NCBI GenBank assembly: GCA_035221665.1
Contig: CM069162.1
Coordinates: 19,158,001 to 19,222,000, forward strand
DNA: 64,000 bases
From: Okamejei kenojei
Taxonomy: Eukaryota
Direction: 5' to 3'
The notes beneath the pieces were generated by a model. It did not search any database. It was not told where the DNA came from and worked only from the letters and a program-made list of their open reading frames with translations. The first letter of the stretch is position 1, and every line of letters begins with the position of its first letter. The position numbers and the translations under genes were made by a program. Of this stretch, positions 1,026-58,066 are shown piece after piece.

Positions 1026-1376
1026 ATGAACACGCTAGAGGCAGGAAACATGTTCCCGATGTTGGGGGAGTCCAGAACCAGGGGCCACAGTTTAAGAATA
1101 AGGAGTAGGCCATTTGGAACGGAGATGAGGAAACACTTTTACTCACAGAGAGTGGTGAGTCTGTGGAATTCTCTGCCTCAGAGGGCAGTGGAGGCAGGTT
1201 CTCTGGATGCTTTCAAGAGAGAGCTAGATAGGGCTCTTAAAAATAGCAGAGTCAGGGGATATGGGGAGAAGGCAGGAACGGGGTACTGATCGGGGATGAT
1301 CAGCCATGATCACATTGAATGGTGGTGCTGGCTCGAAGGGCCAAATAGCCCACTCCTGCACCTATTGTCTACTGTC
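1026..1376 (+). mobile_element. CR1/HER1 LINE 3' end
   Basis: ORF2 C-terminus SRTRGHSLRIR...QRVVSLWNSLP followed by 3' UTR gatcagccatgatcacattgaatgg. Confidence 0.9.
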
Positions 1377-9803: not shown

Positions 9804-9857
9804 GGGATGGGAGATTGCAACCTTCACGTGGTCCACCCTGTTTCGACTAATGCAATC
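9804..9857 (+). ncRNA. Predicted minimal HDV-like ribozyme (one P1 mismatch)
   Basis: P1 GGGATGG/CCACCCT, P2 GATTGCA/TGCAATC, P3 ACC/GGT, L3 TTCACGT, J4/2 C-TAA. Confidence 0.7.
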
Positions 9858-9941
9858 AACCGGACATGCACAATCAAATAAGATCAAATAGAACAAGTTG
9901 ACCTACAACTTCAGGTTGTGAATGCCATACGCAAGAAGAAG
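9804..9941 (+). mobile_element. Short non-autonomous retroposon (Ingi/Vingi-like 3' end) with 5' HDV-like ribozyme, copy 1
   Basis: 5' 54 nt fold as a nested double pseudoknot; 3' end gccatacgcaagaagaag; paralogous to 57218-57335. Confidence 0.75.
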
Positions 9942-51156: not shown

Positions 51157-53419
51157 TTATAAAAGCATTCTGTAACTACAAACGTGATATTGTTAACACA
51201 AAGGGACACAGTTTGAAATATGTTTTGAGTTCGATTTACAGAAGGCTTTATATTCAACCATTTGAGTGTTGTGGTGTTATACCTCAATAATGTCTTTATA
51301 GATAACAAATAACTTTATGCTTATCCACATCTCTATATGTTTCAAATCTGCGATTTCTGCTAATACTCATTCCCTGATGGATAAGTTGAAAGAGAATTTG
51401 AAGTGAATTCCAAAGTCGAGATTCCAAAGCCAGATTCAGGAAACGCGTCAAAAAATTTCTGCTCCAGAGCTGTGTTCAGGTTTCTTCAGGGAGTCATGAG
51501 CATTGATAACACATTGAATATAATCTTAGTGACTAAACTCCCCACACCCTCCCGACTAAAAGGGAAGGATATATGAGCAATTGCTATACGAAAGTAGCCT
51601 CTTTGAGATTATCCAACAACTCCGGTCACCCATAGAGATCTGGAGTCAGCTCCCACTGGGAAACACAGAACGTTTTACAAATAAAAGATAGACACAAAAT
51701 GCTGCAGTAACTCAGCACATCAGGCTGGACCCTTCTTCAGACCCGACCCGAAACGTCACTTATCCATTTCCCCAGAGATGCTGCCTGACCAGCAAAGTTA
51801 CTCCGGCATTTTGGTCTCTACCGTTTGTGTAAACCTGCATCTGCAGTTCCTTTTGATTACATGTCTACAAAAATGAGAGTACAGGAATAAAAGCACACGC
51901 GGACTGTAGTAAATTGTTATTTTGATGTTAATCCAGCTTTTGGAACAGAGATTTGAAAAAGCAGAATGTGCAGAAAACACTCAGCAGGTCAGGCAGTATC
52001 TATAGAGACAGAAACAGTGTTAACTCTTCAGGTCAAAGATTGGTTAAAAAAACTTTCCGATGAAGGGTGTTCAACCTGAAATGTTGACTCTATTTCTCTA
52101 CCCATAAATGCTGCCCGACCTACTGAGAATTTCCAGCAGTTTGTGCTATTGTTTCAGGTTTCCAATATTCGCAGATTTTCTTTTATTTTGGCGCAGAGAT
52201 GCTTCATATGACTATTTAAAAAGGTATAAAAACATTAAAATGGGTCTTCTGCAAGAGTAATGCTCAAAGTCTTGATGCAAAAGACAAACTTTCCTGGGGT
52301 TTTGCACAGTCTAATGCTGGAAGATCCAAACGCTGGCATCGTTCTGGTTGTCTGAAACCAATGTGAGGCAAATCAATATTATCTCAAGAGTTCTCGGAAG
52401 CTGGCGAGATCTATGGATCGCATTAAATTTAGCAAATACCATTGCCTTTGGGGTTAAGGGGAGGGGTGCATGAGAGGCAAGTCAGCCAGGGTTGCCACTT
52501 ATCCACTGGGTAGAGCCATTGTAATCTGACAATATCTTTCTTTGGGGATGGTTCCTCCATGCAGAGAGGTGAACTAACAGTCCAGTCATGCGTATCCCCA
52601 TCCACAGGCTTGCACTGAGGATAGCTTCTCCATGCCAGATATCAGGTTACCCACCATGTACTCTCCACCTCATTCACCCATTTATTTTCTGCTTTACTAA
52701 CTATGAAGAAACACTTCAAGCTGGAGAGGGACGGAGTGATTGACTCAATGGCATCTTCCAAGGGGGGGGGGGGGGGGGAAATGGAGAGATTGTCCAGCAC
52801 TGGTGCAAGGAGACAGGGACGTTTTCATCGCTGTGAGAATCTCGTCAGGGTGAGCTGGTGCTTGGCTCCATTCAGTCGATGGTTCCAATCCAACGGGGTG
52901 CGGGTGAGCGTGAGGAGAATCTTGTTTTGTGACAGAGGGTGCGAGCGTAGGGTCCGGCTGGTCATTGCACCAGGCACGGATATCATCCACTGGGGATGCC
53001 CAGGAGCTCAGAATTAGGTCTCTGGCAGACCAAGAAGCAGGGGAAACCAGTCACTGCTAGAGTGGCTGCACTTGGAACTTAGCTATCAAAATTCATTTTG
53101 CTACGTAGTTAGCTAGTGGTTTTTGTTTAAGGTTCATGCCCTTGCAGGTCTCAATTTGAGGCTCTGTGGGAGGATCTAGGAGGTAGGCGAGGGAAGTGAG
53201 GATGGAAGGCAGGGAGGGAATTGGCCATTTTGAGCTCATGGTGCACTGCGATCAGGGAGGCTGTGGCTAGCTTCATCTAGATACACTCAGCTCCTTCCCG
53301 TGACTCGTTCGTCTGACCACAGTGCTTCACAAGCCATAGCCAATGTACTGAAAAGAGGGGGGTGGATTCCTGACTAATAGGACAGTCCGTCCTGGAGCAA
53401 GTCCCAGGTAGATGTTGAG

Positions 53420-53700
53420 TTAGACGCAGGCCAGTAGTGCCAGCAGGGCTAACAAGATTGCGCTGGTGCCCTGGGCAGCCCACGCGCCATTGTCACAGGG
53501 CAAGGTGTTGAGGTTAGTACAGTGGTCCCGGTTCTGGCCAATGCAGGCCGCGTACGCCATCACGTGCGGGATGTAGTTCTGCTCGTGTACGCTGTGGAAG
53601 AGGTGAGCCATCGGGCCCTTCGCAAATATGGCCACGTCTTCCCCTCCGTGAGTTTCGTGCCTCAGCGGTACGGCCGACTGCGCCTGGTAATGGTTCTCAT
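53420..53700 (-). CDS. ALPL: Alkaline phosphatase, tissue-nonspecific: last coding exon
   Basis: [55 protein letters not shown]...HC followed by a hydrophobic GPI-signal tail and TAA; acceptor ttgccAG at 53702-53701, phase 1. Confidence 0.95.
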
Positions 53701-57037: not shown

Positions 57038-57217
57038 TGAGGTTACAAATGTAAGATGTCACGGTGAATTTCTATTATTTTCCTATGACGATCAAATATG
57101 GAATTATTTCTCATCTCTAACGTTGCAATAATTAATAAGAGAATATCAATTAAAAAAATGCAATTATATATATTTGTGGCCCTTTTTTCCATTGATTACT
57201 CTCATCAGAAATCAGTT

Positions 57218-57271
57218 GGGGTGGGAGATTGCAACCTTCACGTGGTCCACCCTGTTTCGACTAATGCAATC
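57218..57271 (+). ncRNA. Predicted minimal HDV-like ribozyme
   Basis: P1 GGGGTGG/CCACCCT with G1-U wobble, P2 GATTGCA/TGCAATC, P3 ACC/GGT, L3 TTCACGT, candidate catalytic C at 57261 in CTAA. Confidence 0.8.
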
Positions 57272-57335
57272 AACCCGACATGCACAAACAATAACCTACA
57301 ACTTTAGGCTGTGCTCGCCATAAGCAAGAAGAAGA
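57218..57335 (+). mobile_element. Short retroposon with 5' HDV-like ribozyme, copy 2
   Basis: TSD agaaatcagtt at 57207-57217 and 57336-57346; (gaa)n tail. Confidence 0.85.
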
Positions 57336-58066
57336 AGAAATCAGTTTAATCTTTTTAATTTCTGAGCATTCTTTGGCAACTTGATATTGGTATATTATTG
57401 CCACCTGTACTGAGATAAAGTGACAAACTTTCTTTGCAAAAACTCTCCGGCATATCAGGCAGCACAGATGAAATAAACAGAATGCAGAATATTGTGTTAC
57501 AAATGTGGATAAGAAAGGTGCATGGGCCGCGAAGGGTGAAAATGATGCCAACTTGTCAGATGGTTAGAAACCTCCTCACAATCCATTGACATATGAACAG
57601 CAAGACAATGAGGTAAAGAGATCTGCACTTGCCCACAAAATATCTGGTGCAAGTTAGGATTAGAACTAAAATCACTGCAGGAGGTCACTGCAGGTCGGGT
57701 GAAGGATGTTATCATACCCGAAGACTTTCAATTATGAGTTTCGACTCCTGTGAATTCCTGTGAATTAAGTTGTTGGTAGTTGAATGTATAAGCCATGCCT
57801 ACAGCAAAAACCCATGTTTTCACAGATTCATTTGGATGACTCTCAACAAGTTACAAGTGAAACGAGTCATCCAGACTTGGTCTCCTCTATTCCAGTGAAC
57901 ACCATGAATTGAGACCTTTTAAGAATCTAGTTTCAACAGTGTCCAGCCAGTTACTGCAAGTCCTCAAATGCTACCACACGCCATCCCACCCTATCCCACT
58001 GGGGATAGCCGCACCACCCACGTTGTATCACCCTGACATGGTCCCACCGGTAGCGCAGCAGTGCTG

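Follow-up and report, generated by a model that had tools for sequence, protein, structure and literature searches.

A short skate retroposon built from both ends of a Vingi-type LINE and headed by a predicted HDV-like ribozyme without P4

Introduction

A short insertion at positions 57207 to 57346 of a 64,000-nt (64-kb) stretch of skate DNA (the whole stretch is referred to here as the window) raises the question of where a retroposon with an HDV-like head comes from, and what that head does. Ribozyme-headed bipartite elements are a known class in parasites and insects (NARTc, RIME, SIDERs, and R2 SIDEs). The LINE clades described as makers of bipartite elements are RTE, Ingi, Vingi, and R2, and the six ribozyme-bearing clades named in the text of the same account do not include Vingi (PMC5786205). 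HDV-like ribozymes are defined as a family by their fold and not by primary sequence (PMC10879173). Here, we describe evidence that the insertion is most likely a non-autonomous, internally deleted derivative of a skate Vingi-type LINE, whose 54-base predicted HDV-like ribozyme probably cuts RNA before its first base (G1), releasing read-through copies with an exact front for the LINE enzyme.

Results and Discussion

The insertion and its predicted fold

The insert is 118 nt long (window positions 57218 to 57335), ends in (AAG)n and has 11-bp duplications on either side (Table 1). A strict HDV descriptor run over both strands of the window gave one match, the copy at 57218, and no match on either strand in 335,631 nt of other loci; when one P1 mismatch was allowed, there were two matches in the window, corresponding to its two copies of the element. 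Descriptor and covariation together identified the nested double pseudoknot of P1, P2, P3, and P1.1 in HDV order, with the active-site residues present (the G1 wobble, U20 and G25, C22-G37, and the C opening J4/2). No Rfam family matched anywhere in the window at gathering score, and a search at E ≤ 10 over 1 kb returned no HDV-like family and nothing relevant. Minimum-energy folding of the head (z = 0.20) is uninformative for this fold, as the method does not include pseudoknots; the competing G37-C44 hairpin had a weight of 3%. When the sequence was reread and compared to the strict descriptor, every element of the fold lay where the original prediction had placed it, and the 11-bp target-site duplication (TSD) proposed to adjoin G1 was confirmed. 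The structure search that it suggested as a check gave a divided answer, positive with the HDV descriptor and negative with the Rfam HDV-like models. One detail was wrong: the end quoted for this copy, gccatacgc, belongs to the second copy, and the copy at 57207 reads gccataagc.

The host gene was identified as ALPL from an exon (53417 to 53698) with 100% identity to a skate protein cluster named tissue-nonspecific alkaline phosphatase and 86% identity to stingray alkaline phosphatase. Further ALPL exons lie beyond the window end, also on the minus strand, so that the 57218 copy has exons on both sides and is intronic and antisense, as had been proposed; in this orientation it would not cut ALPL pre-mRNA. 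A search of the window for RapGAP as a second gene found none.

Table 1. Features of the insertion, the second copy, and the host gene in window coordinates
Feature	Position	Strand	Basis or remark
5' target-site duplication, 11 bp	57207..57217	+	abuts G1
54-nt HDV-like ribozyme fold without P4 (predicted)	57218..57271	+	descriptor, pairing in relatives; equals parent LINE nt 1-54
Predicted cut site	5' of G57218	+	RNA 5' ends at equivalent position
P1, 7 bp	57218-57224 with 57247-57253	+	G57218.U57253 wobble
P2	57227-57233 with 57265-57271	+	descriptor
P3	57234-57236 with 57244-57246	+	descriptor
L3 loop, U20 U21 C22 A23 C24 G25 U26	57237..57243	+	letters and numbering as in CPEB3
G37 U38 (P1.1 partners), then 5-nt loop in place of P4 (57256-57260)	57254..57260	+	descriptor
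J4/2 with predicted catalytic C57261 (C44)	57261..57264	+	J4/2 starts with C in both distant families
Remainder of LINE-derived 5' UTR piece	57272..57291	+	LINE alignment
LINE-derived 3' piece: last codons, 3' UTR, tail	57296..57335	+	LINE 3' end alignment
Stop TAG (57305-57307) and (AAG)n tail (57326-57335)	within LINE-derived 3' piece	+	
3' target-site duplication	57336..57346	+	repeats 57207-57217
Second copy, 138 nt, longer middle	9804..9941	+	P1 mismatch G4>A; no clean TSD
Last coding exon of host ALPL	53417..53698	-	protein match

Parent LINE

The tail of the insert resembled the end of a LINE ORF, and the genome was therefore searched for W-x3-L-D-L-Q-L-stop, a motif presumed to mark such an end. 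The pattern was found at 280 places (control, 0), and at all 30 places that were read the element's 3' UTR, or the beginning of it, came after the last LINE codons, in most cases with a CCHC-type finger upstream. Extension of 26 LINE 3' ends yielded near-complete copies. One locus (L143; G000:C7:50,581,337-50,578,291, minus strand) is a whole parent copy, spanning 3,047 nt from G1 through the tail and flanked by an 8-bp TSD; its single ORF is broken by stops and shifts, and its pieces match endonuclease (APE) and reverse transcriptase (RT) families, with a zinc finger in protein P0001. No RNase H family was found in Pfam for the intact relatives P0002, P0004, and P0006 (∼1,000 aa). A compact single ORF with APE and RT and without RNase H is described as the mark of Vingi as against Ingi (PMC13708176), and the parent LINE, set beside Vingi by description, would by its architecture be of Vingi type.

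Positions 1 to 74 of the element align to the LINE 5' UTR (L143, 90.5%; L144, 97.3%) and positions 79 to 118 to LINE 3' ends (87 to 95%), and the raw deletion junction is still visible in short copies L004, L017, L018, L021, and L025. Because head and tail are common to the element and L143, the element is, judged from these alignments, a bipartite internal-deletion derivative of the LINE, with a head from the LINE 5' UTR and a tail from its last codons and 3' UTR. A LINE sharing both ends, which the original prediction had asked for, is thus in hand; of the Ingi/Vingi-like partner it envisaged, the architecture fits, whereas its view that the element merely borrows that LINE was too weak, both ends of the element deriving from the LINE itself. 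The features of the SIDE type were all found (both LINE ends joined, no ORF, many dispersed copies, TSDs, and a simple-repeat tail). A classical SINE with a tRNA, 7SL, or 5S head was considered and rejected, as the head is LINE 5' UTR and has no Rfam match; the expected lack of a tRNA or Pol III head was correct.

Among the 150 matches listed, the longest open frame was 697 aa and no intact LINE ORF was seen, and LINE 3' ends were a median 87% alike (117 pairs). From this frame length and divergence, the LINE family appears old and largely dead and is probably now inactive. Several further observations concern the LINE copies. Copies with a 5' inversion were frequent (L112, L042, and L124-L134), and the inverted part often ended in the first ribozyme bases; in L042, the segment separating both arms of P2 was itself flipped. 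At L101 (∼1200-1335, minus strand), a short element with its TSD sits inside the beginning of the very LINE from which it derives. P0003, a protein assigned by name to the deep-sea eel Synaphobranchus kaupii, showed 67 to 83% piecewise identity to the decayed L143, far above other relatives, and horizontal transfer between bony fish and skates is one possible explanation of this closeness.

Copy number and family variation

An exact 22-mer of the core occurred 5,612 times in the genome, and the 54-nt head matched 8,975 genome places at ≤3 mismatches (reversed-pattern controls, 0), in keeping with the abundant family that had been predicted from two copies. Sixty loci were read (the 30 best matches and the 30 first by position), of which 54 had a tail; tailed copies were mostly 120 to 145 nt long and carried a TSD of 7 to 14 bp in 43 of 54 cases. 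These duplications and tails, with thousands of dispersed copies, bore out the claim of a retroposon, and the expectation that copies start at G1 held in 48 of 54 short tailed copies, which begin exactly with GGGG. A further upstream G was seen in none of these 48, and none of 11 copies with extra letters at the junction had a lone extra G, which would be the signature of a cap.

Two main subtypes were recognized, whose heads differ at just two positions, 8 (unpaired) and 32 (U-A to U.G). All stems and core residues were intact in 18 of the 30 position-ordered copies. In 25 copies of one subtype, non-CpG divergence was 3.58% in the head and 3.68% in the body; the head being no better kept than the body, single copies appear to drift neutrally, and no host selection on single copies was seen among the 25 compared. 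In L002, L014, L088, and L081, the element stops at the same mid-point and runs on into another repeat, which suggests that this repeat was a preferred target or that the copies form a chimeric subfamily.

The fold in distant relatives

Related LINEs at 78 metagenome loci provided 19 upstream segments. The strict L3 descriptor identified no head in the 78 loci, and a relaxed descriptor was passed by 2 of 19 upstream segments (L219 and L169) and by 0 of 19 reverse-strand controls; the other 17 segments came from truncated, degenerate, or distant LINEs. In both cases the head immediately precedes the ORF, and the LINEs share ∼31 to 51% identity with the intact relative nearest to the skate protein. 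When L219 and L169 were aligned with the two skate subtypes, P1, P3, and P1.1 paired in 44 of 44 cells, with two-sided changes in 4 of 11 pairs (shuffles as high, 0 of 500; slid controls, ≤54.5%). P2, which the aligner had misplaced, was counted separately by script and paired 7 of 7 in the window copy, L219, L169, and L213, with four (L219) and five (L169) two-sided changes relative to the window. U20, C22, G25, G37, U38, and the J4/2 C were constant across the compared families, and the P4 region was longer in L219 and L169 than the 5-nt loop of the skate head. The covariation comparison covers three independent families, and as L219 and L169 were selected by passing the descriptor, the pair counts are biased toward the fold. 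Stems that differ between families while pairing is kept suggest selection on RNA structure rather than on DNA sequence. Such selection could also have kept the pseudoknot as a 5' shield, a protein-binding site, or a translation element, with the RNA read ends at G1 described below being a library artefact at a G-run. Ribozyme folds of R2 are described as protecting the 5' end, and HDV-like heads have been proposed as IRESes; however, it is the active-site residues that are constant here, and not the stems alone, and we consider this reading very improbable.

Left out of the counts were L152:280-365, a possible HDV-like variant whose L3 has 5 nt and whose P4 is long, and the L149 upstream segment, in which no HDV-like fold was found. 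High relaxed scores in L257, L267, and L271 were rejected as simple repeats, and one in L218 as lying inside coding sequence. Viral contigs held no relative, and 49 loci of prokaryote bins held nothing but a degenerate head (L245).

RNA ends at G1

Reads of four runs from organism A, perhaps another species than that of this genome, were aligned to the typical copy L078. Among the loose-end rows listed, 1,587 of 5,476 aligned reads in single-cell run X22 and 1,364 of 5,408 in single-cell run X23 stopped exactly before G1. The loose-end consensus at this point comprised 30 letters ending in three G (agreement of 0.70 in X22 and 0.66 in X23), which we take to be the template-switch adapter. Reads that stop at G1, most of them running into adapter, thus place RNA 5' ends where the cut is predicted. 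Sense reads over the head outnumbered antisense reads ∼3 to 1 (1580:465 in X22; 1452:478 in X23), and a neighboring repeat in L078 showed the opposite strand bias. That these ends are an artefact could be argued from the occurrence of strand invasion at G-runs (PMC3562004), and the G1 counts rest on the loose-end rows listed only. However, the junction has three adapter G followed by the element's own four, and strand invasion would not yield three G beyond those four (PMC3562004); seven G in place of four therefore argue for a true RNA end. Nor is there a comparable step at a second GGG run (positions 6 to 8, present in 711 of 1,526 X22 sense reads), where depth goes from 1580 to 1693, and the DNA copies, too, start at G1.

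Whether that end is made by a cut or by a cap is a separate matter, and the adapter junction cannot tell the two apart: a capped RNA starting at G2 also gives seven G. RNAs with a 5'-OH that start with G do template-switch, although capped ones switch better (PMC6885630). It is thus conceivable, albeit unlikely, that the head serves chiefly as an internal RNA polymerase II promoter starting at G1, like Pr77, and that its inherited P4-less fold cuts slowly or not at all. Pr77 of L1Tc/NARTc is described as a promoter that is also a ribozyme (PMC3383444), Pol II is taken to transcribe bipartite LINEs (PMC5786205), and the CPEB3 ribozyme, which has the same core, is reported to be slow and able to dimerize through L3. 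In addition, the letter before G1 was a pyrimidine in 41 of 54 tailed copies and T in 32 of 54, which fits an initiator, and in bulk oligo-dT run X24 979 reads passed through G1 into varied flanks (agreement of 0.44), with no pile of read starts at G1 among those listed. Against a promoter as the main function, capped ends often add one G (PMC4534009), whereas neither the adapter consensus at G1 nor the genomic junctions carry an extra one, and the changes in stems with pairing kept across families point to selection at the RNA level. Promoter and ribozyme functions of the head are not mutually exclusive, and the element, called promoter-less in the original prediction, may yet prove to have a promoter.

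A-runs after the tail fell at one position in 697 of 752 cases in X22 versus 2 of 21 in X24; they were not read as polyadenylation, since oligo-dT could prime on (AAG)n. About one-third of single-cell sense reads (L078:1538-1543) had a two-letter insertion like that of the copy at 9804-9941, which was nearly absent in DNA run X17, so that expression in organism A may be high for a single subtype or locus.

Proposed mechanism

A self-cleaving head on an internally deleted LINE best explains the head and tail shared with a 3-kb LINE, the copy number, the TSDs, the start at G1 in both DNA and RNA ends, and the pairing in relatives. Host transcription would read through a sense copy, and the head would fold and cut the RNA just before G1, with catalysis presumably by C44 and Mg2+. 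While active, the LINE protein would have bound the shared 3' UTR and (AAG)n tail in trans, and target-primed reverse transcription at a nick would then have produced the TSD of 7 to 14 bp. Mobilization by this route would depend on host read-through, though an internal promoter may contribute too, as it does in L1Tc (PMC3383444). A short RNA is likely to be copied to its end, so that nearly every copy keeps its head, unlike the LINE copies, which are mostly cut short: LINE tails were found at 280 places versus 26 for LINE starts (counted with different patterns), and only 4 of 22 aligned LINE heads began at position 1. In published accounts, P4-less HDV-like ribozymes cleave in vitro and need the C opening J4/2 (PMC10879173), and a one-pair or weak P1.1 need not slow cleavage (PMC13635239).

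Relation to known elements and ribozymes

The closest parallels are NARTc and RIME, derivatives of L1Tc/Ingi in trypanosomes, and SIDERs, which are short and non-coding and are described as having ∼77 nt at the front and ∼30 nt at the end in common with their LINE, with an HDV-like ribozyme in NARTc/RIME that cuts just before +1 (PMC3383444, PMC4035085). The skate element differs from NARTc/RIME in its vertebrate host, a parent in which no RNase H was seen, its length of ∼140 nt, its (AAG)n tail, its ∼9,000 copies, and its 54-nt P4-less fold. Vingi LINEs (Vingi-1_EE of hedgehog and Vingi-1/2_Acar of anole) resemble the parent in their compact single ORF of APE type without RNase H (PMC13708176), and internal-deletion derivatives of Vingi have been reported (PMC5786205), the comparison to the skate LINE being by description. 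The R2 SIDEs of Drosophila are likewise ribozyme headed, internally deleted, and moved in trans (PMC6765202, PMC3414825); they are rDNA specific with a much larger ribozyme, whereas the skate family is dispersed with TSDs of 7 to 14 bp. Among ribozymes, that of CPEB3 is identical in letter and number at U20 U21 C22 A23 C24 G25 U26 and at G37 U38, the comparison covering L3 and these P1.1 residues (PMC4836649, 10.1101/2022.09.22.508989), but is single copy, occupies an intron in sense orientation, possesses a P4 stem, and shows conservation among mammals. Minimal HDV-like or theta ribozymes share the lack of a P4 domain and a catalytic C that comes first in J4/2, but ∼99% are reported from gut phages, next to tRNAs, and the genomes of bacteria, human, mouse, and protists searched in that work are described as giving only 12 theta matches, all in bacteria (PMC10879173).

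Among the papers listed by the literature search, we found no printed account of a P4-less ribozyme on a vertebrate Vingi-type element; Repbase, Dfam, patents, or supplements may already have a name for the repeat. Similarly, no ribozyme on Vingi was found in that literature, though the Ingi examples of Ruminski 2011 may include elements now called Vingi, and the main text of a 2026 ribozyme survey makes no mention of Vingi, shark, or skate. With the skate element, a LINE clade that has no listed ribozyme would gain one, and thousands of sites in a vertebrate genome would carry an HDV-like fold lacking P4, a form described until now from phages and metagenomes. It bears on the open question of why only RTE, Ingi, Vingi, and R2 yield bipartite parasites (PMC5786205), and the skate copies amount to a natural mutant library in which selection against sense intronic self-cleavers could be tested directly. 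The core equal to that of CPEB3 also makes a retroposon origin of the CPEB3 ribozyme testable. It is a tentative and rather doubtful extension of these results that a CPEB3-type front ribozyme is general among Vingi-type LINEs, that thousands of the ∼9,000 skate 54-nt P4-less heads are still able to cleave transcripts of the host and to release a small RNA, and that the mammalian CPEB3 ribozyme is such a head, domesticated; the human genome is reported to hold a Vingi fossil, X12_LINE.

Vingi-1 is in use as a gene-writing tool with RNAs that keep their native UTRs (PMC13708176), and a self-cleaving head together with 5'-3' pairing would explain the role of these UTRs. Such pairing is possible in typical skate copies (L078 body), where the 3' UTR can form an 8-bp stem, or clasp, with the stretch that immediately follows the ribozyme; in the copy at 57218 it is reduced to 5 bp (57281-57286 with 57310-57314). 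In L143 and L095, both decayed LINE copies, no clasp of at least 6 bp was found, and L149 and L152 showed none clearly. At the same two places, an unrelated complement of 8 to 10 bp occurs in three members of a distant family (L213, L205, and L174), and the clasp may explain why both ends are kept.
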